The notes beneath the pieces are model-generated. The model did not search any database. It saw only the letters and a program-made list of their open reading frames with translations, and was not told the origin of the DNA. Source: a virus. From it: DNA of 64,000 nucleotides. The translations under genes were made by a program, and so were the position numbers. Below are positions 5,303 through 34,200 of this stretch, piece by piece. The DNA is taken from the IMG/VR virus record IMGVR_UViG_3300009481_000012, positions 6,075 to 70,074 of that record; one strand, 5' to 3'. How positions within the stretch are numbered: position 1 is the first letter of the stretch; each line of letters begins with the position of its first letter.

Positions 5303-6278
5303 TGAGTGGGATCAATTAGAAGAAGTTATAGTAGGATCAGCGATAGGGAGTAAAATACCTAAACCTAATAAAAGTTTAATGAGTTGTATGTACCCAACAT
5401 ATACTGAAAAAGAAATATTAACATCTTCAGGTCTTTTTCCAGCATGGTTAGTAGAGGAACAAGAAGAAGACTTAGATGCACTAAGTAATACTCTAAAAAG
5501 TTTAGGAGTAAAAGTTCATAGGCCAGATTCAACGAAGAAACCAGAGTACCATTACCACTGCCCTAGAGACTTAACTTTAATTGTTGGAAATACTATAATA
5601 GAAACCCCATCTCCGTTAATTGATAGAAAAAATGAAACTCAAGCATATAAAGATATTTTTACTAAAAAATGGAAAGACGGCTATAAATGGGTTAAAGCCC
5701 CAACCCCAAGCTATAAAGAAGAAAATTATCAAACTGATGATATAGATAGAAAACCGACTCTTTTAAATAAAGAACCCATGTTTGAAGCTGCTAATTGTAT
5801 GAGGATAAATAATGATATTCTTTATCAAGTAAGCAATACAGGAAACGAGCTGGGAGGTCAATGGTTACAAGATATTCTTATGGACAAAAAAGTACATATT
5901 TTACATGATTTATATTCATATGCACATCTAGATAGTACAATTATTCCTTTGAGAGAAGGTTTAGTTTTATATAATGCTAGTCGAGTAACTCAGGAAAATG
6001 AGCCGAAGTTATTTAAATCATGGGACAAGATATGGATCGATGAGTGTTATAGTGCTAGTAATAAGACAGAGCTTCCTTGGGGAGCAAGTGCGTGGATTGG
6101 ATTAAATCTTCTAAGTGTAAATCCTAATCTTGCAATAGTAGATAAGAAACAAAAAAAGTTAATACAAAAACTTAAGAAACATAAAATTGAGGTCATTCCC
6201 TTAGAACTAAGACATGACAGAATTATCAGTGGTGGTTTCCACTGCGTGACTTTAGATTTGAGTAGAAAAGCAACATAA
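5289..6278 (+). CDS. Amidinotransferase (glycine/inosamine-phosphate amidinotransferase family)
   Basis: NEWDQLEEVIVG, CPRD, FEAAN, HLDST, GGFHCVTLDL (catalytic Cys); ATG at 5289 preferred over TTG at 5271. Confidence 0.9.
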   Translation: MTCNNEWDQLEEVIVGSAIGSKIPKPNKSLMSCMYPTYTEKEILTSSGLFPAWLVEEQEEDLDALSNTLKSLGVKVHRPDSTKKPEYHYHCPRDLTLIVGNTIIETPSPLIDRKNETQAYKDIFTKKWKDGYKWVKAPTPSYKEENYQTDDIDRKPTLLNKEPMFEAANCMRINNDILYQVSNTGNELGGQWLQDILMDKKVHILHDLYSYAHLDSTIIPLREGLVLYNASRVTQENEPKLFKSWDKIWIDECYSASNKTELPWGASAWIGLNLLSVNPNLAIVDKKQKKLIQKLKKHKIEVIPLELRHDRIISGGFHCVTLDLSRKAT

Positions 6279-17853: not shown

Positions 17854-20800
17854 TTAAATTCCTTGTGCCACAAAATCTAATACTACACCTGTAGAAGGTG
17901 CTTGATCAGATGAGTTAACGACATTAATATTTGCTCCTGTATTTGTTGAGCCTATAACTGTTGCAATTTTTCCTATTGATCCTACAGGTGTCATAGTAAT
18001 GAATGGGGGTTCAATAAACCCAGCAGAGGAATAGTCTACCGCCGTGTTCCCCCCAGTATCACTAGTTCCTGCAAAAGTAACTCTAGCCCTAAACTCTTGA
18101 GTTGGTTTGTCTACTGTATACTCAAAAGTATCTAACGTAAAATTAGTTTCAGTCGGTTTTGCGTTTGTTATAATTTCTCTGATTTGGAAAAATCTAGCCA
18201 ATCTTGACCCAGTACTAAAAGTAGTGAATCTATCATCAGAAGTTCCAGAAAACGTACTAATATTTACATTACCATTAGCAAAAAATGGATCAGACTCAGA
18301 AGTTCTAATTTGTGTAACTCTTGATAAAGCACTAGAATCTCCTAAGAACGTAGTTGCTGCAGAGGAAGAATCTGAAAACTGGTTTAGATCTACTAGTTTA
18401 TATGAACTCGCAACGGTTGTCAAGTTAGCAAATGCATTAGCTCCTGTTGATGCCCCGTTAGCATGATATACTTTTCCTAATTTAATCTCATCTGCGTCAA
18501 TTACACTAGCAATTAGAGCATATGAATTAGCATTAGAATAATCCCCTAAATCTACAACTCCGCTACTAGAGTAGGCTGAGTGACCTGCTGAAGTATTAAT
18601 CGCTTCATGAAGTACTCCACCAGAAGAATAAGTAGTGAAAGCACTACTATTTGTTCCCGAAAGCTCAAAAGTATTTGTAGTTTTATTAGCGACAGTAAAA
18701 ACAAGGCCGTTTAGTTCCGTCATACCTACTACGCCTTGAATAATTACTTTATCTCCATCACTTAGCCCGTGTCCAGAAGCAGTTACAACTGCAGGGTTTG
18801 CTTTAGTAACTGCTGAAATAGTAACACCAGATTTAGCTGTATAATTAAATAATTGAAGAGTAGTATTTGATGTACTTCTAGTTACATAGACTTCTCTACT
18901 ATTTAGCTGTGTCATACCTACTACGTCATGTATAATACTTCTTGTTGCAGGGGTAGTCGTTGCTAAAAAATGGTCAGCAGATACAGTTATAATACCCGGC
19001 TCTGCTTGTGTTATTGCTGTAATAGTTTTAACTCCCGCTCCGTCTGAAAACGTAGTTGAATACTGTCCATCATTCCAAATTGCAAAAACATTACCAGAAG
19101 CTCCACCACTTGTTAGAGTTTGATTTGGGGCATTAAAAGATACAGCTGCTGCAACCGTATTACTAAAACCAAGAACTGTGCCTACCCCTTCAGAACCACC
19201 TAACCCTGTATCTTTCAATATAGTGTTGTCACTACTAACTTCTGTAACTCCTGTGGCCTTATCTTGGTGTAGAGTATTCCAGTCTGTAGAGGTGGTTGCT
19301 GTGCCTTGTATATTAGCCGTTAAACTAACAGACGTTAAAGCACCTATATCTCTTACTTGTGTTTGATATATTGATTGACTTCCTGTAGCTAAAATATCAG
19401 TAGGACTACCACTTATTACGGAAAATCCTATAGCAGTACCATTAGCATTATCAACTAACGAAGTAGGTTGTGCGGATATAGATAAGCCTGCAGTATTTGA
19501 GTTTGCTAAACTTGGGAAGTTAAATTCAGTTCGATTATCTAGCGGTACCCCTGATACGACGTTACCTCCAGGATTATCTTCACTATAAGATTGTAATAAG
19601 AACAACTCGGCTAATTTTACTGAGGTAAAAGTTACACCAACTACGTCTGTACTTAAGTTACCACTAGTATCACGAGTTTTAGCTAAATAAGTAAACGTTC
19701 CAAATGTGTCAATAGCAGCTACTTTTCTGGTTGACCCAGAACTAACTACAATGAACTCTGGAGCATTAACAAAAGCAGAAGCAAAGTCATCGGGCTGCAC
19801 TGTGCCGTGTGCTCTTTTAATGACAATATCTCTTAAATCTGGGTCAAACAACGAACCGTCTGCATTAGTAACATACGCCCAGAATAAGTGAATGTTTTCT
19901 CCTAATTGAGAAACACTAAAGTTTTGAATATTTTGTGGAGGTGCTTGTTTACCTAAAATAGCTTGGCTTTTTTCTAAGGTTACTCCTTTAATTGCTTTAT
20001 TTAAAGCAGTAACTCGTACTGTTATATTATTAACACTAGAGGTTAGTCCACGATCAACATTGTTAATAGTAAATCTCATTTTACCATCAGTGTCTACCCC
20101 AGTAGAAGGAAGCTTGACGGTATTAAAAGAAGTTAAATCTGCAGCTTCGCCCCCTAACTTATAAGAAAGTTCATAGTCAGTAACACTCTGATTTTGAAGA
20201 TGATCAAACTCTACTGTTACCCTTGTTACAGCACCAACAGACTGTTCAATATATAAAGATTCTGAGATAAGTAAGTTTTCTACTCTTTGAATAGGTATTT
20301 CATTAATTAAAATAGATTCGGTTACAATAGGACTTCTTCTACCTGCTTGGTTAACGTTTTGTGCCCTCAATACGTAAAGTCCGGGATCGACTGCTCTTAC
20401 CAACCTATCAGCGGGCGTTTGAAAACCATCAAAAGTTGTTGGAGTTAATACGGAGTAGATGGCATTATTAGCGAGAGAGAACGAGCCTGGGAATAATGTT
20501 TTGTTATAATCAAAAGTAAAACTGTTACCGAAAACATTATTAGTTGTTCCTATAGGATCGGGGCTAATATTAACAGCTACAGTTCCTCTAGTATTAGAAC
20601 GTAATTGAGATCCTAAAGTTACCCTATACATATTATTAGCTGTTAACGAGGCATTAAAATCAGCGCTATCTGTAGAATAAGAAGCGTTAACTATAGAATA
20701 AACATTTCCAGAATGAAACTGTAAATTATCTCCCGGCTCGACGGCAGGAACAGTATAATGCTCTGCTTCTATTCTAATTGTAGCTTCTGTGCTTAAGCCG

Positions 20801-23800
20801 GGAACAGTTATTGAATCATTAGCCGAGCTAGTAAAATTCCAGTCTCCTGTAGTTTTTTCTATTCCATCTATAAATACTCTCACTGATTCTTTAAAAGGTG
20901 CACCTCTTACTAAAGGTTGTATAAAACTTGAACTAGCAGTTAGATTTCCTGTAATAACATTGCTATGTATCTCAGTGAAACTACTACCAGAAATATATAA
21001 AGACCTATTATCCATAAACCTAGTATCTACTAATTGATTAATAGAAACATAGAAAGGAGGAGTAGGAAGTTGGTCAAGTAGTGTTGATTCTCCAGAGTGT
21101 TCGTTTTGTATTTTTATTGTTCCTGCATCCATTGTTGTAGAGTGAGAGACAATATTAGCACTATATTGAGTAAGTCTAGTACCGTGATCGACAAATCCTA
21201 ATAATCCAGTTCCTGTATTGAGTTTTTGATTTAAATCAAAAGAAACTCTATCAAAACCTTTTAAGACGTTAGCAACAGCTCCTCCTCCATCATTAACTTC
21301 TAAAACGTGTTTCATTTGATTAATATCAAAAGCCAGATTTAAAGATTTAATACTAAATTGTACGTTCCCATTAGAGGTATCTGTTACATCAGGGTTTGTT
21401 ACTGCGTCCACTAACAGTTTTATTTCTCCTGTATTAGTTTTAAAACCATTTTTACCTGACAAGATAGACACTTCTCCATTAGCTAAAGGAGAGGTATTAG
21501 ACGCGGTAAAAGTTGTTGTTCCTGTATTTGCATTGGAAGTTAGGTAAGGAACAAAATTAAAATCAGGGCTAGCGATTGATAAATCAGTTTCTAAGAAAAG
21601 TGGGTATCCTGTTTGATCAGTAAATACATCAACTAATAAATCATTTGTGACAGAACCATCACCCAACTCTCTAGGTCTAGAAGATAAATTAAGTTCGGGT
21701 GCTGGTGGCGGTGTTAGAGGAGATACCGTATCATCATACCTAACAGGTACATAAGCAATTAAAGAGTCAGAATCAACATATACATTAGAAATATATTCAA
21801 CTCCTGTAATAGTTACATCCTCTTCTGTGCCTCTTGCTATAGAAGTAATTTTAAACAGTCTATCATTCTGAGAAGTATAAAAATTATCAGGGTCACTCCC
21901 TGTTTCTCCAAAAGACCAAAGATCTCCTTTTTTAGGAACATTGTTAGCTAAAAAGTCTCTTCCACTAGCAAAAGCTTTTGTTTTATAATTAAATCTTGCT
22001 ACAGTTTCAATCTCTAATAAATCTATACCTGAGTCTGCATTACCCGTAGAGTTTGCAGTAAAAGAAACATTGTCTACTAGATAATAGTCAATTCTATCGG
22101 ATGCCATACCAATTACTCTCACTGCGAGGGGGTTATTATTACTAGTAAAAGTGCTAGCGGTAATAGCAGGACTAGTAAAATGTTCTAAAAGAATATTAGC
22201 ATTTGTTACACCCCCACCTGTTATTTGAGAATCCGCAGCCACTTTTCCCCCAAATCCATAAGCAATCCCTCCTTGTTTAGTAGCAACAGTTATAACATCT
22301 CCGACTACTAGATTAAGAGCATCTACTCCACATTGAAATTCTACTTGTCTTCTTAAATATTTAGAAGACGCAATCAAATATTGTCCGTATCGAGATGCTT
22401 GACTTCTTCGAGTAACTCCTGCTAAATCAACAGTAGTAATGTTTTCTATTTGATTTCTATCTCTTAAAGCTTCTTGGTCATCAATTCTTACTACTTCTCT
22501 TTTAAAGTGGTTCGCGGGTTCGATGTAAGATACATCTACTCCTGTTATGATGTCACTTTCTTTAGTTCCAGAAAACTTTAAAGTATCTCTTTTAATATTT
22601 GCGTCATTGAATATAGCAACAGGGGTGTCTTCTGGTATGTCAATATTTAATGTAATTTTACCCCCTGCGTAATATAATAGTCCTCTAAATGTTGAAGTAA
22701 TTTTATTAACAGTATCCATTACCTGAACATCTTCTTGTATACTAATATCATTCATGAATCTGCGTTCTTTTACTTGAACACCTCTATCTAATCCTACTAG
22801 TATCTCTCTAACAGTTGAGAATAATCCTAAAGGTTTATGCCTAAAGGTTCCGTCTGCAAACCCGTCTACTCCAACAAAACCTCCTGTAGTAAAATCACAG
22901 GCATCACAATATTGGGCAACTTTATAGAACATAAATTTATCTATATTTTCTTCGTCTATTCCTAGTCCATAGGTTTTATTTGTTAAAATATCATAAACAA
23001 TCCAAATCGGGTTTTGAGTCCAAGAGTATACAAAAGTACCGTCCCAAACACCTTGATAAATTATCGGGTTTGCATTAAATTGTTCTGAGGTTAGTGTCAC
23101 GGTGGCCGTAGCCGTCATACCGGTTAGTGTGTGGCTAGCTCCAGATCCTGATGTTATATCAATAGCTGTTCCTGCATTAGCGTTTGACGCACTAGTTGCT
23201 AGCTTTACTGTATTAGCGTCAATTTTAATAATAAATACTCCCCCAGAAGCAACACTAACACCTGTTCCAGAAATAGCAGTACCTCCACCAGCGCTGTAAG
23301 TTGCTTGATCTCCTGTAGCAAAAGGATGTCCTGAAAGGGTTATAGTTTCTGACCCATCACTAACTGCGGATGCCCCATTAAAAGTTATAGCAGCAGGGGC
23401 TGCGATTGCCACTGTAGGAGTAGTAGTATAGTTACTTCCTACATTTGATATATTAATAGTAGTAACTTTGTTAGAAGATATTGTTGTAGTAGCTCCGGCA
23501 CCACTGCCCCCTCCTCCAGAAATAGTGACAGAAGGAGTAGCGTCTGAAGCATATCCAGATCCGTTAGTTTGTATGCTAATAGAACTAACTTTTCTTTTAG
23601 CCGTACCTTCTACAGTGGTTTGTAATCGGTAACCTCTCTGAGTATAACCAACTTGAGTTGATTCTCCATTAATAGTTATAGTGCCTGTTTCTGGAACTTC
23701 AAGCTGTCTCCAATCTATTTCTCCATTAGATAAAACAGGTTGATTGTAATTAGCAGGAACTTTAACTAAAAGACCTTTTATTAAAGAAGTAAATGTGGGA

Positions 23801-25065
23801 ACTCTACCCTCATGCTCATTAAAAGATTTAATAGCATAACCAATTAAAGAAGTTCTAGGATATGCCATATCGTCAAACTCTATCTCATCCCAACCAACAA
23901 ACTGAACATTGTCTTGAGTTCTGTTAGAGTCACTATCAGAAGAAGTTTTTTCTATTGTAAATTTATATCCATCAAGCGATCTAGAAGTTTCTGGAATTAA
24001 AATATCTCTTTGAAATTTAAATCTCGTGTTGGTTTTTCCACTAACTGTTCTACCATCTTCCCCTAATTCAGCGATTAAAGTTGTACCTGTTCGATCAAAA
24101 ACTTGAATAGTAATAGAAACACTAGAACCCGAAACATTACCGTTTCCATCAGATTTTTGAAGTCCTTGAATAATAAAGTTAAATCTTATCTTGTCCCAAT
24201 CTTTTGCGCTAGTATTTTGTAAGATAACTGATGCTTTTGGAATACCTTCTACATTACCCTTTTTTAAACTTACAGCGTTATTTAAATTTTGAGGAGTGAT
24301 AGTCTCAGCACCAAACACAGCTAAAGGCTCTTGTGTTAGAGTTCCTGTCGTCGTTAAGGTTTTAAAAACTTCATTATTTTCTTCTCCGTCTCCATCAATA
24401 TTAATTAAGTCATCAACAGCTCCCTCGTTAATCTCAATATCTTGGGGGCCGTTAGGATTAATTCTATAAATAGGACCTTCTCCCAAAGCAACTGTGAGAA
24501 ATAAAATGTCAGTTGAAAATAATGTATTAGGAGATTCTGTTGCAGCCGCCCTCGCTCCACCTCCTCCTTTTCCTCCGCCTTTGTTAGACAGGCGAATTCC
24601 TTGACAAATATAGTTATGATAAGTATTAACTGTTAAATTATATACCGTTTCATCTAAATAATCTTCGCTTTCGATAGATAAAATTTTACTAAAATCGTTG
24701 TCCTCTAAAGTTAAGTATTCTCCAACTTTCCAATCTTTAGCTTCTTTATATTCATTACTCTCATCATATAAATAATGATTATCTGTGACTCGCAACACAC
24801 CTTTTTCATGTGTAAGAGTTAATATATACCCTACTGTTTTAGAAGGAACATGCTCCCAAGTCTTTTCTACAAAAGATGCCCAACGTTTATCGTTATCATC
24901 AAAACAATATACTTTATCATTAATTTTTATATCTTCAATAGGAATTTCTCCATGAGGAGTAGACACTAAAGATCCTGCTGGAAAACAGCCTCCTCCTCCT
25001 TTGCTTCCAGATATGATAGGGACAGACCCTCCATTAACATTGGTATATTTTTTATATACACTCAT
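17854..25065 (-). CDS. Central tail tip / host-specificity protein (lambda J-like) with N-terminal Hint domain
   Basis: ALGEGPI, YPRTSLIG, WTQNPIWIVYD, AQYCD, GVTRRSQASRYG; FnIII-like and E1-FCCH-like repeats; follows L-K-I genes. Confidence 0.9.
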   Translation of the reverse strand: MSVYKKYTNVNGGSVPIISGSKGGGGCFPAGSLVSTPHGEIPIEDIKINDKVYCFDDNDKRWASFVEKTWEHVPSKTVGYILTLTHEKGVLRVTDNHYLYDESNEYKEAKDWKVGEYLTLEDNDFSKILSIESEDYLDETVYNLTVNTYHNYICQGIRLSNKGGGKGGGGARAAATESPNTLFSTDILFLTVALGEGPIYRINPNGPQDIEINEGAVDDLINIDGDGEENNEVFKTLTTTGTLTQEPLAVFGAETITPQNLNNAVSLKKGNVEGIPKASVILQNTSAKDWDKIRFNFIIQGLQKSDGNGNVSGSSVSITIQVFDRTGTTLIAELGEDGRTVSGKTNTRFKFQRDILIPETSRSLDGYKFTIEKTSSDSDSNRTQDNVQFVGWDEIEFDDMAYPRTSLIGYAIKSFNEHEGRVPTFTSLIKGLLVKVPANYNQPVLSNGEIDWRQLEVPETGTITINGESTQVGYTQRGYRLQTTVEGTAKRKVSSISIQTNGSGYASDATPSVTISGGGGSGAGATTTISSNKVTTINISNVGSNYTTTPTVAIAAPAAITFNGASAVSDGSETITLSGHPFATGDQATYSAGGGTAISGTGVSVASGGVFIIKIDANTVKLATSASNANAGTAIDITSGSGASHTLTGMTATATVTLTSEQFNANPIIYQGVWDGTFVYSWTQNPIWIVYDILTNKTYGLGIDEENIDKFMFYKVAQYCDACDFTTGGFVGVDGFADGTFRHKPLGLFSTVREILVGLDRGVQVKERRFMNDISIQEDVQVMDTVNKITSTFRGLLYYAGGKITLNIDIPEDTPVAIFNDANIKRDTLKFSGTKESDIITGVDVSYIEPANHFKREVVRIDDQEALRDRNQIENITTVDLAGVTRRSQASRYGQYLIASSKYLRRQVEFQCGVDALNLVVGDVITVATKQGGIAYGFGGKVAADSQITGGGVTNANILLEHFTSPAITASTFTSNNNPLAVRVIGMASDRIDYYLVDNVSFTANSTGNADSGIDLLEIETVARFNYKTKAFASGRDFLANNVPKKGDLWSFGETGSDPDNFYTSQNDRLFKITSIARGTEEDVTITGVEYISNVYVDSDSLIAYVPVRYDDTVSPLTPPPAPELNLSSRPRELGDGSVTNDLLVDVFTDQTGYPLFLETDLSIASPDFNFVPYLTSNANTGTTTFTASNTSPLANGEVSILSGKNGFKTNTGEIKLLVDAVTNPDVTDTSNGNVQFSIKSLNLAFDINQMKHVLEVNDGGGAVANVLKGFDRVSFDLNQKLNTGTGLLGFVDHGTRLTQYSANIVSHSTTMDAGTIKIQNEHSGESTLLDQLPTPPFYVSINQLVDTRFMDNRSLYISGSSFTEIHSNVITGNLTASSSFIQPLVRGAPFKESVRVFIDGIEKTTGDWNFTSSANDSITVPGLSTEATIRIEAEHYTVPAVEPGDNLQFHSGNVYSIVNASYSTDSADFNASLTANNMYRVTLGSQLRSNTRGTVAVNISPDPIGTTNNVFGNSFTFDYNKTLFPGSFSLANNAIYSVLTPTTFDGFQTPADRLVRAVDPGLYVLRAQNVNQAGRRSPIVTESILINEIPIQRVENLLISESLYIEQSVGAVTRVTVEFDHLQNQSVTDYELSYKLGGEAADLTSFNTVKLPSTGVDTDGKMRFTINNVDRGLTSSVNNITVRVTALNKAIKGVTLEKSQAILGKQAPPQNIQNFSVSQLGENIHLFWAYVTNADGSLFDPDLRDIVIKRAHGTVQPDDFASAFVNAPEFIVVSSGSTRKVAAIDTFGTFTYLAKTRDTSGNLSTDVVGVTFTSVKLAELFLLQSYSEDNPGGNVVSGVPLDNRTEFNFPSLANSNTAGLSISAQPTSLVDNANGTAIGFSVISGSPTDILATGSQSIYQTQVRDIGALTSVSLTANIQGTATTSTDWNTLHQDKATGVTEVSSDNTILKDTGLGGSEGVGTVLGFSNTVAAAVSFNAPNQTLTSGGASGNVFAIWNDGQYSTTFSDGAGVKTITAITQAEPGIITVSADHFLATTTPATRSIIHDVVGMTQLNSREVYVTRSTSNTTLQLFNYTAKSGVTISAVTKANPAVVTASGHGLSDGDKVIIQGVVGMTELNGLVFTVANKTTNTFELSGTNSSAFTTYSSGGVLHEAINTSAGHSAYSSSGVVDLGDYSNANSYALIASVIDADEIKLGKVYHANGASTGANAFANLTTVASSYKLVDLNQFSDSSSAATTFLGDSSALSRVTQIRTSESDPFFANGNVNISTFSGTSDDRFTTFSTGSRLARFFQIREIITNAKPTETNFTLDTFEYTVDKPTQEFRARVTFAGTSDTGGNTAVDYSSAGFIEPPFITMTPVGSIGKIATVIGSTNTGANINVVNSSDQAPSTGVVLDFVAQGI
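24583..24987 (-). other. Hint (intein/BIL-like) domain, J residues 27-161
   Basis: Block A CFPAGSLV, block B VTDNH, blocks F/G VYNLTVNTYHNYICQGIRLSN; 135 aa, no endonuclease; +1 residue is Lys. Confidence 0.9.
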
Positions 25066-25772
25066 TATGCAAAACTCTCCGAAACTTTGATTATGTCATT
25101 TTTACCATGACTCAAGCTTTTTACGTACCCGCTTATCATTTGTCCTCCAATTCTAGTCGCTCCATAGTTCATCCCAAGAGGAAACCCTACTTCAATAGTA
25201 TTATTTACACCAGTAAACAAACTATTTTGAGTTTTTGATCCATCATCGACAATAGTGCCTCCTGGTTGTGCCCTATTTGGAGGTTTCTGTACTATACTCA
25301 TTATTCCTTGTAAAGCCATTGAAGCGCCAAACATTGCTATGTTAGTATAAGTAACAGCCATACCTGCTACCGAGAAAGCTGTTGCTCCCATTCCAGAAAA
25401 CATGCCCGCGCCTCCTAGAGCGACCGGAGCCAGGTAAAAAGCCATTGCCATAATAGCGACACCAAGAGCTATTTGCATAAAACCCCCGTTACCACCAGCA
25501 CCTATTAAAGAAGGCACTAAATAATAAACAGCATCTTTTTCTAGTTTTTTATTAGCTTGTACGTCTGCTAAGTTAACTCTTTTTTTATTTTTATCCAAAA
25601 AGAAGAAATCTCTATTAAAATTAGTTTTTAATTTTTTCAATAATATATTAAACTCTGGAAAAGAATTTATCATAAAACTCATTAAAGAATGATAATCACG
25701 ACAATTAATAGTCAGTTCTCTTTTATCTTTAAAATATGGTTTTAAATTAGAGTGTATAACTAAAGTAATCAT
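25065..25772 (-). CDS. Tail assembly protein I-like (ubiquitin-like domain), copy 2
   Basis: LVPSLIGAGG, hydrophobic middle, FTGVNNT..G.P..NYG..RIGGQMIS. Confidence 0.82.
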   Translation of the reverse strand: MITLVIHSNLKPYFKDKRELTINCRDYHSLMSFMINSFPEFNILLKKLKTNFNRDFFFLDKNKKRVNLADVQANKKLEKDAVYYLVPSLIGAGGNGGFMQIALGVAIMAMAFYLAPVALGGAGMFSGMGATAFSVAGMAVTYTNIAMFGASMALQGIMSIVQKPPNRAQPGGTIVDDGSKTQNSLFTGVNNTIEVGFPLGMNYGATRIGGQMISGYVKSLSHGKNDIIKVSESFA

Positions 25773-26440
25773 GTCCCAAAACTCTCAGACACTTTTATAA
25801 GATCACCTTTTCCGTGGTTTAAGCTTTTTACAAACCCACTCACTAATTGTCCAGATACTCTAGGTAACCCATAATTAACAGGTACATTATTATTACTTGA
25901 AGTTGTATTCTGGAGACCAGAAAACATATTATTATCTATTCTTTCTTGGTTATCTGCTATTTGTTTTTCTGGAGGTTTAGGAGTTTCTTGCATTAGCCCC
26001 ATTATCCCCCCTAATATCATATTTAGTCCTGTTGACATCATCATTTTTCCAAGAGTTGTTCCTAAAAGTTGAGTCCCAGCAAGGCCAGGAAAAGCAAAAG
26101 TAGCACCAATTAAAGCAATACCTATAGCAATTTGTAGAAATGACCCTTTTTTACCTCCAGCTCCTGCCATCATAGGAACTAAAAATAATGATGAGTGATT
26201 TTCTTTAAATTTATTGAACTCATACACCCTAGATTTAATTAACTTTTTATTTTTATCTAATAAACATAAATTTTCTAGAACTTCCGTTGCTTGTACTCTT
26301 CTAATATAATTTCCAAGATTTGGAAATAGGTGAGAAATAGCAGAAACTAAAGAAGTAAAATCATCACAAGTTATTGTGTGATTTTTTACCCCATCAGTAT
26401 ATTTCAATAAAGAACGATGAAATTCTAGCGTAATTTTCAC
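25769..26440 (-). CDS. Tail assembly protein I-like (ubiquitin-like domain), copy 1
   Basis: LVPMMAGAGG, FLQIAIGIALI, FSGLQNT...VPVNYG..RVSGQLVS. Confidence 0.82.
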   Translation of the reverse strand: MKITLEFHRSLLKYTDGVKNHTITCDDFTSLVSAISHLFPNLGNYIRRVQATEVLENLCLLDKNKKLIKSRVYEFNKFKENHSSLFLVPMMAGAGGKKGSFLQIAIGIALIGATFAFPGLAGTQLLGTTLGKMMMSTGLNMILGGIMGLMQETPKPPEKQIADNQERIDNNMFSGLQNTTSSNNNVPVNYGLPRVSGQLVSGFVKSLNHGKGDLIKVSESFGT

Positions 26441-26805
26441 TTTAAATACTCTTCCTTAAATTCGTCAAATTTAATTGCGTCTATTTTTTTATCGAGCCAA
26501 TAAATATAAAATTTATTACTAAATCCTACAATAAATTTAAATTCTTCAAACACGGCTCCTTGTTTATCCTCTTCACTAGGTATAGGGTTCTCTTCTCCTG
26601 GGTGAGAATGAAATATTCCCCAACAGTTGTCTTCATATTCCCATAGTATTTCTGGGTCAACAATAAAAGTATCTTTAGGTAAAGGACTTATATTCTTAGC
26701 AGGCACGTATTTAAAGTCTTTTGTTACAAGCCCACAACATTCTTTGGGGTATTCAGCTTGTGCGTGTTTACCCATATCGTTAATTAATGTTGAAAACAAA
26801 GTCAT
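26437..26805 (-). CDS. JAB/MPN metalloprotease (lambda K N-terminal-like)
   Basis: YPKECCGLV and FHSHP-x6-SEED JAMM motif. Confidence 0.9.
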   Translation of the reverse strand: MTLFSTLINDMGKHAQAEYPKECCGLVTKDFKYVPAKNISPLPKDTFIVDPEILWEYEDNCWGIFHSHPGEENPIPSEEDKQGAVFEEFKFIVGFSNKFYIYWLDKKIDAIKFDEFKEEYLK

Positions 26806-27232
26806 CTGCTAATCCTTTCCATCTAAAAAGCCCTAAAGTGTATTGTTTATAATAGTTTCCATAAGGAGAAATCCAAGAGTTTCTATCTATCATTGTTTGT
26901 AAAAGTTTATTTTTTTCTACTAATAAAGCACAATGATTTATTTTATTAGTTGATCCAATACTCATTATTGCTACATCAAAAGGTAAAACGTCTTTTAATA
27001 ATATTTCTTCCCATCCTAGGTTAGAGTTTCTAAATTGTGTAAAAGGATTTGTATCTATTTTATTATACCAATCTTGATCTACAATATTACAAAAATCTTG
27101 AGTAGAGTAGGGAATTATAATATTTTTTTCGTTTTTATATACTAGTCTAATTAAGTTTAAACAATCTATTCCAGTTTCTGGACTACTCCCTAAGTGCTTA
27201 TAAGGAAAGCCTTTATATTTTTCATACCACAT
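26780..27232 (-). CDS. NlpC/P60 peptidase (lambda K C-terminal-like)
   Basis: GFPY..G....GIDCLNL, NHCAL. Confidence 0.8.
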   Translation of the reverse strand: MWYEKYKGFPYKHLGSSPETGIDCLNLIRLVYKNEKNIIIPYSTQDFCNIVDQDWYNKIDTNPFTQFRNSNLGWEEILLKDVLPFDVAIMSIGSTNKINHCALLVEKNKLLQTMIDRNSWISPYGNYYKQYTLGLFRWKGLADDFVFNIN

Positions 27233-27233
27233 T

Positions 27234-27653
27234 TTACCCCTCTTTACGTCTATATATGCTATGTAGCTGTTCTCTCCATATTTGGTTTAAGGACGAAATC
27301 ATAGATGAAGACTCTTCTTCTATGTGAATAAATTTATTTCCTCCTACATACATCCCAAAATGAATTGGTCTATTTTTCTTAGATTTAAATATTATTACAT
27401 CATATTCTTGTATGTCTGTTAATTTAATTCTTTGTGCGTTTGCTGCAATCCACTCTTCTATTTTTTCTAAAGTAATTTTAAACTTCCATCTTCTACCCTC
27501 TGTGGGTTTGCCTTCTGACAAATTTAAATGTGTCCATAAACTTTTAAAAACGTCAGATTTTAATTCTTCTTTATAAATTTTTTCAATTAAAGTAATACAA
27601 TTTACATTTTGATAATCGTGTTTTATGCCTAAGTAGTTTACATAATCTGTCAT
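27234..27653 (-). CDS. NlpC/P60 peptidase
   Basis: NCITLI, HFGMYVGGNKFIH. Confidence 0.8.
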   Translation of the reverse strand: MTDYVNYLGIKHDYQNVNCITLIEKIYKEELKSDVFKSLWTHLNLSEGKPTEGRRWKFKITLEKIEEWIAANAQRIKLTDIQEYDVIIFKSKKNRPIHFGMYVGGNKFIHIEEESSSMISSLNQIWREQLHSIYRRKEG

Positions 27654-29641
27654 TATTTAGGAATAGTCCTACCCGTACCAGGAAAGCCCCCAAAGTGAAT
27701 AGTGTTATTTCTAATCTGACAAGATTCAAAACTCTTACCGCACTCATCTCCTTGAGTGCTGCCTGCAGTTTGATTATTAGCAGCAATTGGGTTTGCGTTT
27801 GCACTTAAACTAGTCCCAGGAATTGTCCCTCCAGCGGGGCCGGGGTACTGGCACTCTTCTCCTTTATAAACCCACTGACAAGTATTTTTATAATACTTTC
27901 TTTTTGGAACTCTGAGTTTAAAAAATTGTAACCAACTTGTTAAAGAAAAAGTAGCAACTTTTTCATCTAACCCCGATAAAGCATCAATTTTAAATACATC
28001 TTCTACATAAGCTTCATCATCACTATCTATATTTTCAATTAACAACGGATCTCCTACTGTTATTTCTAACGCAGCGTTTGTAAATATAAACCTATTTTCT
28101 TCTATTGCATCTATAGTTGCTATAAAACTATTACTTCTACTTTTTACGTTATCTCCAACCCTATAAGGTAATGCGGTACTAACTTCAACCACGTTTGCAA
28201 AAGCTCCATCTACTCTAGAATACTCAGGCCAATAATCTAAAAAGTTAGAAAAAGTAGACTTAATTTCTACTACCGCACCTAATAGATCACGAGAATCCAT
28301 TTTTTCTCTTTTCCATTCTCCAGCTACGTCTGCCGTAGTGCTTATAGTAAATGAAGCATTGTCGGTTCCATAAGCATCTCTAACTGTTTGGCTAAAATTT
28401 AAGCCTTTTGTTCTTTGTGCCGCTAAAACTGTTGTGTGTTCTGAGTCTGCATAAGTTGCGTCAGTAGGAATTGTTCTAGGGTCAATTCCTGTTAGTACTT
28501 CGCCGTTAACAACAGCGTAACAAGCATTGGAAGTGTTGTTGCCCACTAAATCTGGGTTTTCAGATATTTGCGTAATTAGTCCATCAAAGTTAGATATATC
28601 AATACTTACTTCATTAATTTTACCCGAAGAGTCTATCTCTAATCCGCCGCTGTTGATAGGCATAGGGGTGTAGTTAACCCCTCCAAATTCTACATTATAA
28701 GTTACGTCAGCGTTTAAATCTCCCCTAACTTCAGCAAACCTAAGAGGAAAGCCGTCTGGCCAGCTTCTACCTTCTCCATCGTTTGTCGGGTTACCTTCTT
28801 CATTCGGTTTATACCACTCGCCCGGGTAGTATATACTATATAATCTAACAACAGGGTTTTGGATGAAAGCATTTCTTTCTCTGATGTAATTAGAGTTTAT
28901 AACATTAGTAATAGCAAAGTTAGCCCCATTTTTTTGCTCACTAAAAGAAGCAGCAGTAAAAGGGATAGTTTCATTATTTCCAGTATCTACTCTAACGTCT
29001 ACAGCAAAAGCGTTAGCAGAAACCCAATTATCATAATTAACTTCATACTCAAATTCAGTAGTTTCGTCTGCTACTATTGAGGCATCAATAGTTGGCAGTA
29101 TTAAGTCACTTAAAAGAGTTGCAACTCTTTGTGGGTTATTAGTGAGAGACTCTCTTAACCCTGATTTTGTAAAAGTAGTACCAGAAGTTACTGGAGAAAT
29201 AGGTTTAATATCAAACCCTGTATTTCCTAAAGTTGTGCTAGGAAAATTAATATTTTGTTTAGGTATAATTCTATTATTTATAAATACATCAAAATTATCT
29301 AAAGTAACATTACTTAAAGATAAAGCTTCAGAGGGTAGAGAAAAAGTATTTGTTGCTCCATTAATTATAAAGGCATTACCATTTACAGTAGTTGAAGAAC
29401 TATTACTATAAGCAACAGAAATAGCGTTTGAAGCTACTAGGTTAAATACTGACCTTGCATTTTCTCCAACTACAAATTCTTGATTTACATTAGCCACTTT
29501 AACTTTAATATTAGCATTGGCAGCATCAACAGCTACTACTTCTCCACTAGTAGCTGTTACATTACTAAGAATAGTATCTCCTGCAGCGATTACATCTGGT
29601 TGAGTAACTGTTAAAATGTAATCATACGTGCGGGTAGTCAT
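27653..29641 (-). CDS. Minor tail protein L-like, N-terminally extended
   Basis: C-terminal CQWVYKGEECQY...DECGKSFESC...FGGFPG four-Cys motif of lambda gpL. Confidence 0.85.
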   Translation of the reverse strand: MTTRTYDYILTVTQPDVIAAGDTILSNVTATSGEVVAVDAANANIKVKVANVNQEFVVGENARSVFNLVASNAISVAYSNSSSTTVNGNAFIINGATNTFSLPSEALSLSNVTLDNFDVFINNRIIPKQNINFPSTTLGNTGFDIKPISPVTSGTTFTKSGLRESLTNNPQRVATLLSDLILPTIDASIVADETTEFEYEVNYDNWVSANAFAVDVRVDTGNNETIPFTAASFSEQKNGANFAITNVINSNYIRERNAFIQNPVVRLYSIYYPGEWYKPNEEGNPTNDGEGRSWPDGFPLRFAEVRGDLNADVTYNVEFGGVNYTPMPINSGGLEIDSSGKINEVSIDISNFDGLITQISENPDLVGNNTSNACYAVVNGEVLTGIDPRTIPTDATYADSEHTTVLAAQRTKGLNFSQTVRDAYGTDNASFTISTTADVAGEWKREKMDSRDLLGAVVEIKSTFSNFLDYWPEYSRVDGAFANVVEVSTALPYRVGDNVKSRSNSFIATIDAIEENRFIFTNAALEITVGDPLLIENIDSDDEAYVEDVFKIDALSGLDEKVATFSLTSWLQFFKLRVPKRKYYKNTCQWVYKGEECQYPGPAGGTIPGTSLSANANPIAANNQTAGSTQGDECGKSFESCQIRNNTIHFGGFPGTGRTIPK

Positions 29642-31278
29642 CAGTCATAAACCTCTTTTAACTTAAACTTTACTGTGTAATAGTTATTTTGTAAACTAGC
29701 GTTTGAAGCATCAGAAAATACGTGAGTAATTCCTAAAGAACCATCAAACCTTGCTTGTATATTACCAATTTCATTGATGTGTGTCAAGTCAAAAGTGAAA
29801 GTTTCAAATGAACCATTTCTAGACCTGTAAAACTGTTCAATTGCATGTTTTTCTACTCCTGATATGTTAGTATATGAAATATCAAAATCACGTTTAGAAC
29901 GACGACTTCTTAAAGTACGTTTTTCATACCCACCTTGAGAAGTAAACTGCACTACATCAAATTCAGTTGAAGTAGAAAACCCTTTATCTGGTTTTCTATC
30001 TGCCATAGAAGTAAATCTATCAAACGTTTCAGTAGTACTGTCAAAATGTCTTATTACTAGCGTATCATTTGATTGTAAAGGAGTGTGTATACGAGTGAGT
30101 TCTGTTCTAGGTGCCACAAAAGTTCTGTCATAAACTCTTGTCTCATTAACAAATCTAAAAGAGTCTATAAAACCTTTTAAATTTTCTCTGGTAGCAGCAC
30201 TAGTTGTGTTTATTCTACCTATATCAAAAGTTCCAGTAGGAGTTATCGAATAGTTGACGGCATTATCTTCTTGAACCATTGTTCCATTAACAAAAAGTCT
30301 TGAGTGTGCTTCACTTCTATCATGAGTAATCGCTAAATGAACAAATGTATCGGCACTAATAGATCCTCCTTGTAAATCTGCGACTGTTGCTCCACTTTCT
30401 TTTACAGTCCACTGAATTTTATTATTAGCCATCCTACTTAGCTTAACAAAGTTATTATCATCTGTACGGTGAGAAAATACAGTGTTAGCCGCACCAAGGT
30501 CCTCAAAACGGGCAAAACATTCTATACTAAAAGAACCTGTATATGCAAAATCATTGCTATCTGTAAAACTAACAACATCAGTTCCCGCGTTAAAAGCAGC
30601 TGCAGAGTTTCCATACTTTTTAGTGCTACTTAGTGTTACTCCGGACACTGTAGCGGCTCCTCTAGCTTTAATGCTTTCATCAGTGAAATTTTTTCCAAAA
30701 TTTAACAACAAGATAGTATCAGCAGACTGTCCAATAGTAATACCACCACTACCTAAATTTCGTGAAATAGAGCCTGTAGCAGTTTCTGGTTCTGTGTTAG
30801 ACGCTGGAAAAACATAAGCTTCTTGCGTTTGTTCAACACCAGAAAGCGTTACTAGTAAATCGTTTTTAGAATTAACTTGGGTTTGTGTAGGTGTAGGAAA
30901 GTTTTGTATTTCTCCATTGATTATGTAAGCGTTTGAGTTTATGGTTTGAATATCTGCTGCTGTGTTATTATACTCTACATACCTAACTTGGGGGAAAATA
31001 CGGGTTGTTCTATATCTAGAGGGAAGAGTTATTACTTTTAGTGCAAGAGCTGATGCTCCTGGAGCTGATACAAAAGTAATAGAGTTACCACTATTAGAAG
31101 TAACATATGTTGAAGTATCTTGAATAATCCCGTCTACTGTTGCAACTACCTCACCAACATGCTCTACAGTAGTTGACAAATTAAATTCTCTAACAGTTCC
31201 TGTATCTGAATAGTTGGTAGTACCTACAGTGGTAAAACTAGTTGTTGTAATTGTTGCGTCTGAGGGATAAGTAGCCAT
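29641..31278 (-). CDS. Distal tail protein (lambda M-like) with LamG/ConA domain
   Basis: C-terminal F..GYEKR...EQFY.SR.G..ETF.F; internal FSIECFARF...HLAIT..LFVNG...GFIDSFR. Confidence 0.75.
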   Translation of the reverse strand: MATYPSDATITTTSFTTVGTTNYSDTGTVREFNLSTTVEHVGEVVATVDGIIQDTSTYVTSNSGNSITFVSAPGASALALKVITLPSRYRTTRIFPQVRYVEYNNTAADIQTINSNAYIINGEIQNFPTPTQTQVNSKNDLLVTLSGVEQTQEAYVFPASNTEPETATGSISRNLGSGGITIGQSADTILLLNFGKNFTDESIKARGAATVSGVTLSSTKKYGNSAAAFNAGTDVVSFTDSNDFAYTGSFSIECFARFEDLGAANTVFSHRTDDNNFVKLSRMANNKIQWTVKESGATVADLQGGSISADTFVHLAITHDRSEAHSRLFVNGTMVQEDNAVNYSITPTGTFDIGRINTTSAATRENLKGFIDSFRFVNETRVYDRTFVAPRTELTRIHTPLQSNDTLVIRHFDSTTETFDRFTSMADRKPDKGFSTSTEFDVVQFTSQGGYEKRTLRSRRSKRDFDISYTNISGVEKHAIEQFYRSRNGSFETFTFDLTHINEIGNIQARFDGSLGITHVFSDASNASLQNNYYTVKFKLKEVYD

Positions 31279-31280
31279 TT

Positions 31281-34200
31281 TTACATTGCTCCCCTAATTC
31301 CTTGTCTAATTGGGCCGTTGTTTTTCAAATCTCTAGTGACAATATCCACAATAATTGTCTCTGGAGTAACTTGAACACTTGGCGATTGTGTCGTTTCTTG
31401 AGCAGTTCCTTCGTTATGCATATTAACTACTACATTCTGTGTACCGCCCATAGTTCCATGAGCGTTCATTGCATTTAACGCTGGTCCTCCAATAGCTTTT
31501 GCCATTGGCTTGCGAATTACAAACTCACCTGGCTCTAATAAGGTAGGAATTCTATCTCTTAACATCCCACCTGCTGCCATTCTTTTGATTAAACCTCCGT
31601 GTGCTGCAAACCCAATTGTAGGTGGTAGAATAGAAGGAGAAACAGGAACACCTACTGTCGGTGCTACACTTGCACCTCCTCCTCCAAAAATACCACTAAA
31701 GAAGTCTCCAATACCGCCAAAGATGCCGCTAAAGAAGCCTCCGCCTCCGCCTGAGCCTCCGAGACTGCTGAACAAGTTGCCAACAAAATCAAATACTCCT
31801 CGTCCTGCCTCTAACAAAGCGCTTCCAAAGTCTCCTAAGACAGTTCCAACTTTACTAAACATATCTGTTAAGAAGTTTCCGCCTGTGTCTGCTCCAGCAC
31901 CCAAATCTTCAACTTTGAGTGCGGCAGCATCGCACTGATCTTTAAGTATTTTAGTTGGGTTAGCGGCTGCAACGCTCGGAGCCATAGTTACTAGCATAGC
32001 TGTTCCTCCAGTAGAGGCAACCAAGGCATCTTCAATCTTTTTATCTGGGCCAAAACCAAAAGCTCCCAACACTTTCTCATTAATAAAGTTTTCTACAGGT
32101 TTAACTACCGTTCTATCAAATATTTTTGCTTGAATATCTTTTGCAATATTTAAAAAGGTTTCTTTGAATCCTTCTTTAAAGTTTTCCATTGTTAGTGTGC
32201 CTTCGATCATGGCAGCGTTTAAATCTCGTAGTCCTTGCCCAATGCCTTCAGACAAAGAAGAAGCTACATCTTTAGCAATTTGTAACATTTCATTATCTGC
32301 GTCTGCAAAAGCAGCTGCTAAGTTTTTGGTGCTAATCCCTGCTTCGTTTAGCTCATTAGTTAACTTTTGAAGTTCAGTAGCCGTAATGGTTGCGTTATTT
32401 TTTATCTTTAGCTGGATATCGGCAAGAGCTTCTTGTGCTTTAAGGCGTGCGTCAGCCTCAGCAGCAGATCTCTTACCTCCGACATTTTTTTCTTGTAGGG
32501 TAGCAATCTCTGTTGACTGACTTTTCATTTTCTTTAAAGTTCCTAAAAGACCTGCATTATCATCAGCTAGGTCCGCTATAATGGCGTTAATATCATTAGT
32601 AGCATCATCTATTTGTCCTAGTCTTACTTCATCACCCATTCTGGCGGTTCTTTCTTGTTCTACAGTTCTACCACCTTTCGCAAACTTGTCTCCTTCTATC
32701 ACCTCTTGTCTTGCTACTCTATCAGCAGCAAGTATGCGAGCCATTCCCTCAACATGACTTTCAAAACCTTTTAATTGTTTGTCAAGTAACTTCACTTGTG
32801 CTTCAGTTTGTTTTATTTGTAGATCTCGGGTTGATTTATCAGAGGCAATTTTTGCCTTATCGAGAGCTGCTTGTGCGGCAAATCTTTTTGCTATTAAACC
32901 ACCACCTTCTTTACCACCTAATTGTGCTTGTAATTCTTTTTGTTGTTTTTCTAGAGAAGCTTTTTCTAGTTTTGCTCTTTCTCTTATAGTATCTTTTTGA
33001 GCTTCTATCGACAATCTTAAAGCTTCTAGATCGCTTCTAGCGATTCTAAGCTCTAGCGCTCTTTGTTTTCCTGGACTCAACAGATCGCCAAACTCAGCAG
33101 CAATATCACTTGCTCGCTGGTTTGCTCCTTGTCTAGCTAAATCAGCTCCTTCTGCCCGAACTTTAGCTAAATTTCTTTCAGCTTCAAGTGTTTTTAAACT
33201 ATTAGCAAGAGCTTTTTGTTCACTTTTAATTCTTTGCTCACTTAGTTTAAGTGCACGATCAGCGTCTTGTAAAGCATTTTGCTGTTTTAAAAGAGTAATT
33301 TGGTTTTTATATGCTAAAGTTTGTTTGTCTAAACTTTTTTCTAATTTTTGACTCTCTTCAACAATTTTTTGGAATTGCCCAACAATAGCTAACTCTGCTG
33401 TACGAGCTAAAGCGGCTCTTTGTTTTTGTATATCGTTAAGCTTCTCAGCCTCTTTTCCTCCAGCCCTTTGAGTGGCTAAATCCTCTCGTCCTAGATCATA
33501 CATTTTTTGTAACTGTTGTAATTGAGAAGCTTCTTGTTCTGATTTCTTTACTGTTAAATCAAAATTATCGACATTATTTTTAGACACTAAAATGTTCATC
33601 TTACTAAGTTGGGAAGAAGCTTTAATTTCAGCAGAATAAGTTTCCATTATTTGTTTTCTTGCTTTTAAAATCGCCATCTGCGCTTCTATATTTTTATTAT
33701 TTGCATCTAAATCTGTTTGAGCTGCGGAAGCTATGTCTTTTGCTCTTTGACTTTCTTCTTTTTTTAGCTTTGTAATTTTAGCTACCATTGCGCCACGTTT
33801 TTGCTCAAGCTGTTCTAGGGTAGCTGATCCACTACGCATAGCTTCTATAAGGTTAGCCTGAAGTTGTTGAGTTTGTAACAAACTTGTTTCAATTTTTTCT
33901 TCTTCATGCTTGCGTGCTCGGGCCTCTATCGACAACTTATTAAATTCTTGCTGTGTTTTAAATCTTGCTCTCATCGTTTGTAGAGCTGTCCTTTCATTTT
34001 TAATTGCGTCATTTGAAAAGCGTAGTGCTCCTTCTTCTGCTACGAGCAATTTATTAGCAGATTCTAGCGTCATTCCTGTAGCTTTTGCAAATATTTCTCG
34101 TCCACGCAAAGAGCCTCCAGATTCTCCAGCAAACTGTTTCCCCATTTTTTCAATAGCGGCTTTTAGTTCGGGGTTAGTATCTAAGTTCACTTTTAATTTT

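Follow-up and report, generated by a model that had tools for sequence, protein, structure and literature searches.

Hint domains are known mainly as inteins in replication enzymes and as bacterial intein-like (BIL) domains in variable secreted bacterial proteins. Published phage inteins include those of terminase and ribonucleotide reductase (PMC3556154, PMC5105087). Type A BILs have no nucleophile at the first residue after the domain (+1) and can splice via the freed amino group, which attacks the thioester (PMC4031507); BILs are described from hypervariable parts of bacterial proteins that are not conserved and in many cases secreted (PMC7765530). BIL2 of the BUBL1 locus of the ciliate Tetrahymena thermophila follows a whole ubiquitin-like (Ubl) domain and is reported to form a Lys-epsilon isopeptide and to pass the Ubl to other proteins without ATP (PMC8616854). 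In lambda-like tails, gpI (TAPI) has a Ubl domain, the JAB domain of gpK is predicted to cut after the last Gly of that domain, and some prophages encode a TAPI-TAPJ fusion (Iyer et al., PMC1779556). The role of the gpI Ubl and the gpK JAB in tail assembly has been a question since 2006. Here we describe a Hint domain set near the N-terminus of a gpJ-like central tail protein (J). It is encoded in the window, which is the whole stretch of DNA analyzed: 64 kb (positions 6,075 to 70,074) of the 70,074-base IMG/VR virus record IMGVR_UViG_3300009481_000012, whose completeness is estimated at 62%. In the accessible full-text literature, with subscription journals outside its coverage, no Hint, BIL or intein was found in a phage tail, central tail fibre or J protein.

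Identity of the Hint domain

A first-pass annotation made from the letters alone had read the start of J as a 26-amino acid (aa) leader, a 135-aa Hint domain and a Gly/Lys-rich segment, and the open reading frame (ORF) bears out this layout. J starts with MSVYKKYTNVNGGSVPIISGSKGGGG (26 aa), continues with C27...TDNH...IRLSN161 and then reads K162GGGKGGGG. The +1 residue is K162 rather than Cys, Ser or Thr. Pfam detected no homing endonuclease in J, and the 135-aa insert is too small for one. PT-HINT (PF07591) scored 30.8 bits on J 1-300 (cut-off 27.7) and was the sole Pfam Hint family above its cut-off. Intein_splicing, Hint and Hint_2 also matched J 1-300, each below its own cut-off, and on whole J the PT-HINT score (27.3 bits) was slightly below 27.7. 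The earlier description of a Hint with neither a +1 nucleophile nor an endonuclease is thus upheld.

In a phmmer search against PDB sequences the best match was 2lwy (a Clostridium thermocellum BIL, E 5.9e-5) and the next was an intein (E 0.097); closeness to BIL or intein was judged from this search. The AlphaFold2 (AF2) model of the Hint, built from 21 sequences, has a block-mean predicted local distance difference test score (pLDDT) of 73-94 over residues 31-160. For J 163-300 the pLDDT is below 50, so that the packing of leader, Hint and J body cannot be read from the model. Foldseek placed the modeled Hint closest to 6y75 (BIL2 of Tetrahymena BUBL1; E 6.3e-11, TMt 0.82, 19% identity), followed by 2lwy (E 6.6e-11, TMt 0.87). 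Lower matches were the DnaB, gp41-1 and RecA mini-inteins and the Hedgehog autoprocessing domain. There were 65 PDB matches at E <= 0.001, and among the matches listed all were inteins, BILs or Hedgehog. The proposed affinity to BIL-type domains, the ciliate Ubl-BIL included, therefore agrees with the best structural matches. The marks of the Hint superfamily are all present, namely the fold, an N-terminal nucleophile (C27) and a block B of the form T-x-x-H (T94-D-N-H97). Judged from sequence and predicted fold, the J insert is a genuine Hint domain and is type-A-BIL-like.

The body of J is that of a gpJ family member. Pfam found FNIII-A_GpJ (9.4e-11), Phage-tail_3 (2.7e-16) and E1_FCCH, and a tblastn search with J 165-1100 matched 1725 phage records, the best of which were annotated lambda gpJ homologues (27-31% identity). 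Homology to gpJ extends over both the hub and the FNIII-A part.

The E1_FCCH match (the FCCH domain of ubiquitin-activating enzyme E1) covers residues 2092-2154 (18604-18792, minus strand) with E 4e-15, above the cut-off, and a similar repeat apparently lies directly upstream. This domain is also precomputed for many Hint-less J relatives, and so it has no tie to the Hint. The match probably marks a fibre domain of the small beta-barrel kind, and its kinship to the ubiquitin system is odd beside Ubl and JAB genes.

Conservation of the junctions

A search with J 1-420 among proteins of 1321-4206 aa returned 221 matches at E <= 0.001, and the best 120 were analyzed. A Hint is present at the same GG^KGG site in 42 of them and absent from 78. 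The Hint-less proteins read M...VP-x-I-x-G-A-K-G-G-K-G-G-G-G...PNSLFSTD; they start with the same leader, which shows that the leader is the ordinary N-terminus of the J family and that the Hint sits exactly within GG^KGG. All 42 Hint-bearing relatives have a domain of 129-135 aa without any insert, and none of them departs from Gly-1, Cys1, H46, T68-x-N70-H71 or the terminal Asn. Before this Asn stands His in 34 of the 42 and Ser in eight, i.e., the window copy and its seven nearest relatives. Position and catalytic residues are therefore conserved throughout a large clade of uncultured phages, and a sporadic, degenerating Hint, which would have spoken against the first-pass annotation, is not borne out.

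A wider, exhaustive and profile-free search of 1.84 billion representatives gave 3244 matches at E <= 0.001. The best 150 were analyzed and included 145 new proteins, 116 with a Hint and 29 Hint-less J proteins. Among the 116, 51 are J-like and contain 48 complete Hint copies, all N-terminal to the J domain; the remaining 65 are not J proteins and contain 134 complete copies. A few copies are defective, among them P0127 with Val at position 1 and P0255 with an internal deletion.

The first-pass annotation had singled out the Lys at +1 as a special feature, which does not survive this comparison. Among the 42 close relatives, 25 have Lys at +1 and 17 have Gly; in the 48 further J-type copies Gly prevails (36, with 12 Lys), and -1 is Gly (45) or Ser (3). 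Cys, Ser or Thr at +1 occurs in none of the 42 and none of the 48. The 134 non-J copies have Lys (110), Gly (12), Ala (4) or another residue (8, two of them Ser) at +1. A Lys is found within six residues after the Hint in 42/42 relatives but at +1 in only 25, and this Lys/Gly alternation rules out Lys +1 as acceptor as a family rule. Lack of a +1 nucleophile, with flanks of Gly at -1 and Lys or Gly at +1, is thus the mark of a whole Hint subfamily.

The N-flank is 13-26 aa long in the 42 relatives and 3-41 aa more widely. It has fewer than 12 residues in 12 of the 48 further J-type proteins, the shortest being MKG, and Cys1 is retained even with N-flanks of 3-8 residues. Three J-like proteins (P0133, P0152 and P0179) have two N-terminal tandem Hints whose copies are 79%, 54% and 53% identical, respectively. 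Both copies are intact in each protein and retain Cys1 and His-Asn. Were the outer cuts alone of importance, the internal junctions could have decayed freely.

Tandem Hints of the same subfamily also occur outside J. P0143, P0135, P0183, P0146 and about 40 more non-phage-like proteins carry two to five of them, separated by spacers of only KG, KGG or KGGG, with ...ARGGGG before the array and a Gly-rich stretch after it. A C-terminal Tim44-like domain was found in two of the scanned proteins. Identity between the copies of a protein ranges from 36 to 63%, recent copies being nearly identical, and no complete copy has lost Cys1 or His-Asn. Such tandem Hint arrays are not known to have been described; the literature was not searched for them.

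Distribution and inheritance

All trees were made with FastTree and are unrooted. On the tree of the 120 J parts, with the Hint columns excluded, a single change accounts for the presence of the Hint, and its branch has support 99. A wider tree, made from 151 J N-termini of which 54 have a Hint, calls for six changes, at least two of them forced by well-supported branches, against a shuffled mean of 44.4. Pairwise distances of Hint and J are correlated (Mantel r 0.50; 0/999 permutations as high). Mean identity is 47% for the Hint and 58% for the adjacent J part, which indicates that the Hint evolves faster; between the window subclade and other subclades it is 30-41% identical. The GC content of the Hint insert, 0.30-0.35, equals that of its surroundings. 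Recent acquisition of the Hint is ruled out by this match and by the correlation of Hint and J distances. These sequence comparisons point to long vertical inheritance with few gains or losses and without homing.

The Hint is flanked by 11-nt direct repeats, AAAGGAGGAGG, 432 nt (144 codons) apart. Since the repeats are in frame, recombination between the two copies would delete the Hint in frame.

Searches in sequenced phages and genomes found no close relative of the locus. Megablast of positions 22000-29000 against 50,697 phage records gave no match, and tblastn of J 1-300 against the same records gave only two helicase inteins of Vibrio phages, so that no phage of that collection has a Hint under a J gene at E <= 1e-3. 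A J-alignment scan of the genomes of 185,579 species gave three weak loci (28-38% identity), none of them informative as to a host.

Leader, gpI tails and JAB protease

The first-pass annotation had noted that the end of the J leader resembles the Ubl ends of two adjacent gpI-like proteins. The likeness itself stands: VP-x-h-x-G-(0-3)-GG occurs 109 times in the 397,057 residues of the plus-strand ORFs of the fetched loci, 52 times in I and 57 times in J, and nowhere else. In the window it is VPSLIGAGG (residues 86-94) in gpI-like protein 1 and VPMMAGAGG (88-96) in gpI-like protein 2. A tie of the motif to the Hint did not hold up, as [VILTA]P-x-h-x-G is found in the leaders of 78/78 Hint-less and 41/42 Hint-bearing relatives. 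Nor is the leader a Ubl. AF2 predicts a hairpin for the 26 aa (strands 7-10 and 13-18, pLDDT 54-72) and no Ubl domain, and N-flanks as short as three residues in relatives leave little to conjugate.

The ubiquitin-like character of the gpI-like proteins, by comparison, was recovered by AF2 and Foldseek. Their N-domain is modeled as a MoaD/CysO-like beta-grasp (block-mean pLDDT 74-92) that ends with the VP..G motif, and its Foldseek matches are CysO (3.5e-4), MoaD, SAMP1, Urm1 and ubiquitin. The two gpI-like proteins of the window are 39% identical (84/218). GpI-like protein 1 is 25% identical to lambda I, with the P and G of VP..G invariant and the C-terminal block conserved, and the tail motif aligns with VPRVAGA..GG of lambda gpI. 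It thus has the organization of lambda gpI (TAPI), a ThiS/MoaD-like beta-grasp ending in a conserved Gly, a Gly-rich hydrophobic linker and TAPI-C, and its sequence past the Ubl domain reads as a hydrophobic Gly/Ala linker followed by a TAPI-C-like end. Pfam PF06805 did not match the gpI-like proteins at E <= 0.01. Lambda J has no leader, and its first residues align with the Gly/Lys segment that follows the Hint.

A stand-alone JAB protease beside these genes was also part of the first-pass annotation. The protein has the complete JAB/JAMM motif (E...H-x-H...S-x-x-D), and E22, H66, H68, S77 and D80 are invariant in 20/20 orthologues from Hint-bearing and Hint-less loci. It is not specific to the Hint, however, as Hint-less loci also have it. 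Loci were counted if their contig extends from J at least as far as the JAB gene, after removal of two repeats (L017, equal to L001, and L014, equal to L003). All 56 distinct loci so counted have a stand-alone JAB, its presence being a counting criterion, and a JAB special to the phage of the window was ruled out. Two NlpC/P60 genes are present wherever the contig reached, in Hint-bearing and Hint-less loci alike. A distant Hint-bearing module (L010, 5974-13587) consists of M, L, I and J without a JAB or NlpC/P60 gene between L and I, and its J leader lacks the VP motif.

Co-folding of JAB with J 1-34 gave a score of 0.85 (runs 0.85, 0.56 and 0.86), and the best of three controls reached 0.01. 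The mark used for such scores is reached by 58/80 solved complexes and 2/110 mismatched pairs. The runs have at least 81% of contacts in common, with a partner pLDDT of at least 61. J 15-24 contacts JAB 45-49, 66-69 and 77-83; J 16-20 is paired with JAB strand 46-49, and J 20-24 lies at the H-S-H and S..D residues. In the model the J leader lies in the catalytic groove of JAB, which lends support to binding, and JAB may dock on or trim the leader. If the co-fold is right, the Hint stands at or beside the bond that JAB would address.

Of the Prok-JAB profile, the annotated lambda K (L089, 1277-1876, 199 aa) covers just the C-terminal portion (63-112), with 23.3 bits, below the cut-off of 25; it also has a full NlpC/P60 domain. 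A 149-nt unannotated gap precedes it, and the deposited start of lambda K may be too far downstream.

Two I genes were found in 14 of the 15 Hint-bearing loci (L085 is the exception with one), and a single I gene in 41/41 Hint-less loci, none of which has twin I genes. On the I-protein tree the two copies form separate orthologous groups within the window subclade, but copies from the same genome cluster with each other in L026, L087 and the L051/L063 pair. This suggests repeated duplication or gene conversion; two of these same-genome joins involve long branches. The data do link twin I genes to the Hint, and this may point to a functional connection. It may also be due to shared ancestry, because there is essentially one transition on the J tree.

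Proposed processing and alternatives

We think it probable that the Hint removes itself from J in one form or another, a view that draws on sequence, models and analogy. As to the form, we tentatively favor ligation as the main outcome, in which the Hint leaves and the leader is joined anew to the J body. The steps are all suggested by conserved residues and by how solved relatives behave. A Gly thioester would first arise from an N-S acyl shift at Gly26-Cys27, and cyclisation of Asn161 would free the alpha-amine of Lys162. The unhindered alpha-amine would then attack the thioester, so that leader and J body are joined by a normal peptide bond. Gly would take the place of Lys as the attacking residue in 17/42 close relatives and 36/48 further J-type copies, and hydrolysis (plain cleavage) would be a side reaction. 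The spliced product would be equal to the J of the 78 Hint-less relatives, with a leader that has the same VP-x-h-x-G-x-GG tail as the I Ubl domains. The Hint would be a self-removing resident and no conjugation device. Self-removal would explain why Cys1, T-x-N-H and Asn are invariant in an otherwise drifting domain. It also agrees with the lambda tip, whose lumen is filled by gpI and gpH trimers (PMC10721106, PMC11101478) and would presumably not accommodate three extra 15-kDa Hint domains.

Several points weigh against this reading. Self-removal is argued here from sequence, models and analogy, and the window copy with its seven nearest relatives has Ser for His before the terminal Asn. The block F position, Asp in most inteins, is Asn in 38/42. 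P0127 has Val at position 1 though its His-Asn is intact, and the counts of intact termini come from end-to-end profile matches only, which favors intact copies. Despite the 11-nt repeat on either side the Hint has been lost only a few times, and more frequent loss might be expected of a pure passenger, which hints that the Hint is no pure burden. The JAB co-fold score may reflect memory of solved JAMM-ubiquitin-tail complexes, and it was obtained on custom alignments, so that its calibration is only rough. Cleavage products dominate type A BIL assays (PMC4031507). Finally, lambda J is leaderless and gpJ residue 1 is visible in the lambda virion (PMC12617516), so the leader is dispensable for the J fold and religation is less obviously needed.

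The last two points would suit double cleavage without ligation, which we regard as rather unlikely but worth serious consideration. Both ends would be cut, the leader (with or without the Hint) discarded, and mature J would start with K162GGGK, as lambda J does at the aligned Gly/Lys segment. The Hint would then do alone what JAB is predicted to do at GG|K in Hint-less relatives. The Hint does lie where the leader tail exits the predicted JAB groove (contacts to residue 24, junction at 26|27), Cys1 follows G-x-x-G in relatives like the residue after GAGG in the I proteins, and the Hint-bearing L010 manages without a JAB or NlpC gene between L and I. P0127, with Val at position 1 beside an intact His-Asn, also fits. 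Ligation is nevertheless preferred because the leader motif is kept in 41/42 Hint-bearing proteins, because Cys1, unneeded if only the C-terminal cut mattered, is kept with N-flanks of 3-8 residues, and because tandem Hints keep both termini at 53-54% identity (two of the three two-Hint J proteins; non-J arrays have up to five copies). The Gly at -1 and poly-Gly at +1 would in addition leave both thioester and amine unhindered. Retention of the JAB gene, with its catalytic residues complete, in Hint-bearing loci also speaks against double cleavage. A classical (class 1-3) intein with a side-chain nucleophile elsewhere would also rejoin the flanks, and the fold, blocks A, B and G and the conserved site in an essential protein are as in mini-inteins. 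It is nonetheless hardly credible here: no Cys, Ser or Thr is found at +1 in any of the 42 or 48 copies, the flanks are solely Gly and Lys, and there is neither an endonuclease nor any sign of mobility.

Conjugation, the bolder proposal of the first-pass annotation, in which a Lys epsilon-amine of K162, of K166 or of another tail protein such as I takes over the leader from the Gly26 thioester, is in our view improbable. The isopeptide-linked leader would be a mini Ubl-like tag removable by JAB, giving an E1-independent conjugation/deconjugation cycle or a decoy against Ubl-conjugating defence. The top structural match is the BUBL BIL2, with its published isopeptide chemistry, the tail of the leader looks like those of the I Ubl domains and by the co-fold prediction binds JAB in the fashion of a ubiquitin tail, a Lys follows within six residues in all 42 relatives, and twin I genes co-occur with the Hint. 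The central tail fibre is moreover the target of the Bil defence system (bioRxiv 10.1101/2023.09.04.556158). A +1 Gly in so many copies does not suit an acceptor Lys, though, and the N-flank is a 13-26-aa peptide without a beta-grasp domain, or in 12/48 so short (down to MKG) that there is nothing meaningful to conjugate. The leader-GG-K junction is an ordinary peptide bond in the 78 Hint-less relatives, the thioester can transfer only the N-flank and never J itself, and no E2-like or acceptor feature was found. It is just as doubtful that the J leader is a minimal ubiquitin-tail mimic with the Hint as its E1, K162 or K166 of J or a Lys of a twin I protein as acceptor, and JAB removing the isopeptide tag during assembly; if true, the phage tail would have an ATP-independent Ubl-like conjugation/deconjugation cycle built in, or a decoy versus host defence. 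Even less probable is an inactive Hint that undergoes no processing and stays on J as an extra N-terminal tail-tip domain. The Ser at the penultimate His position of the window copy, the Asn at the usual block F Asp position and the missing +1 nucleophile would allow it. Against it stand Cys1, T-x-N-H and the terminal Asn, invariant in 42/42 while the rest drifted to 30-41% identity between subclades, as well as the filled tip lumen described above, in which three such domains would be hard to fit.

Gene order of the tail-tip module

The tail-tip module is lambda-like and every gene of the finding is on the minus strand (Table 1). Families were assigned by Pfam, by tblastn to annotated lambda gpJ homologues and by alignments with lambda I and J. 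The gpL homologue (662 aa) and the protein at the M position (545 aa) are far larger than their lambda counterparts; in the former the Phage_tail_L domain is confined to the last ~125 residues, and the end is Cys-rich. The C-terminal part of the tape-measure protein (31281-31700, minus strand) has a Gly-rich, Phe-containing repeat (GGSGGGGGFFSGIFGG...GGGGAS). Cleavage of lambda gpH takes place close to the C-terminus, within a Gly-rich stretch, the responsible activity being given as unknown (PMC12617516), which raises the question of JAB or NlpC action at the tape-measure repeat.

Table 1. Positions in the window of the tail-tip genes and of the elements around the J Hint
Feature	Position	Strand	Basis or remark
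Tape-measure protein	31281-36086	minus	first in transcription order
M-like protein, 545 aa, Laminin_G_3 domain	29641-31278	minus	Pfam
gpL-like hub protein, 662 aa, Phage_tail_L domain C-terminal	27653-29641	minus	Pfam 3.2e-25
NlpC/P60 protein (second), 139 aa	27234-27653	minus	Pfam 5.3e-8
NlpC/P60 protein, 150 aa	26780-27232	minus	Pfam 8.2e-9
Stand-alone JAB/JAMM metalloprotease, 122 aa (E22, H66-S-H68, S77, D80)	26437-26805	minus	Pfam Prok-JAB 6.6e-11, above cut-off
gpI-like protein 2 (distal), 223 aa; Ubl domain residues 1-96 (26153-26440)	25769-26440	minus	ORF, alignment with lambda I
gpI-like protein 1 (J-proximal), 235 aa; Ubl domain residues 1-94 (25491-25772)	25065-25772	minus	ORF, alignment with lambda I
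gpJ-like central tail / tip attachment protein, 2403 aa	17854-25065	minus	ORF, Pfam, tblastn, lambda J alignment
J leader (N-flank), 26 aa, end VPIISGSKGGGG, Ubl-tail-like motif	24988-25065	minus	ORF
Hint domain, 135 aa, C27 to N161; block B T94-D-N-H97; end S160-N161	24583-24987	minus	Pfam, PDB match, AF2, Foldseek
C-flank K162GGGKGGGG, Gly/Lys-rich start of J body	24556-24582	minus	ORF; aligns with lambda J N-terminus
11-nt direct repeat AAAGGAGGAGG, upstream copy, from K22	24992-25002	minus	read from sequence
11-nt direct repeat AAAGGAGGAGG, downstream copy, from K166	24560-24570	minus	read from sequence

Comparison with known systems

The chemistry of the J Hint would be of a known kind; its location, beside Ubl-like and protease genes, is new and conserved. 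As a group the J Hints are numerous, vertically inherited and part of an essential virion protein, in which they occupy a single Gly-rich site and never have a side-chain nucleophile at +1. They are a natural collection of Hints that apparently work with Gly and Lys flanks, which is relevant to traceless, cysteine-free protein ligation. The Hint also marks the leader-GG|K junction, which is I-Ubl-tail-like and predicted in the JAB groove, and thereby makes the J leader a second, simple candidate substrate for the question of Ubl and JAB in tail assembly. It is possible, though we hold it with reserve, that throughout the family, Hint-less members included, the JAB of tail assembly uses the J leader as a true substrate or as a place to dock. 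If so, it would be the first concrete target of that JAB besides gpI.

The module follows the lambda gpL-gpK-gpI-gpJ order with the same families, including an I N-domain with a MoaD-like beta-grasp that ends in Gly. It differs in that K is split into a stand-alone JAB and two NlpC/P60 proteins, I is duplicated, and J has a leader with the I-Ubl tail motif followed by a Hint, both of which are absent from lambda J. Pretoxin HINT domains precede the toxin modules of polymorphic toxins; in J the domain precedes a tail-tip protein.

With BUBL1 BIL2 (PDB 6Y75, 6TMM) the J Hint shares a Gly-Gly-ending segment before the domain and a Lys after it. Here the segment is a 26-aa peptide and not a complete Ubl domain, +1 is Gly in many relatives, identity is 19%, and an isopeptide would be a putative product for J, whereas that of BIL2 is published. 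The class 1 mini-inteins (Ssp/Npu DnaB, gp41-1 and Mtu RecA) have the same fold (TMt 0.73-0.86), blocks A and B, the terminal Asn and a conserved insertion site, and the empty site GG^KGG is present in relatives of J. Unlike them, the J copies have no Cys, Ser or Thr at +1 and no endonuclease, and their distribution is clade-wide and vertical rather than sporadic and mobile.

Type A BILs are nearest. The C. thermocellum domain (PDB 2LWY) is the best sequence match among solved structures and the second-best fold match, and the J Hint is closer in sequence to it than to any intein among them. Cys1, the terminal Asn (His-Asn in 34/42 relatives), the lack of a +1 nucleophile and the ligation through the freed amino group published for this class (PMC4031507) all fit. 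The window copy differs in ending with Ser-Asn in place of His-Asn, and the flanks of the J Hints are almost always Gly at -1 and Lys or Gly at +1 within poly-Gly. In place of the variable regions in which type A BILs lie, the J Hint keeps to one fixed and conserved place in J, an essential protein of the phage virion, with which it is inherited. The J Hint is thus a type A BIL by its apparent chemistry and nearest relatives, intein-like by placement, and like neither by inheritance.

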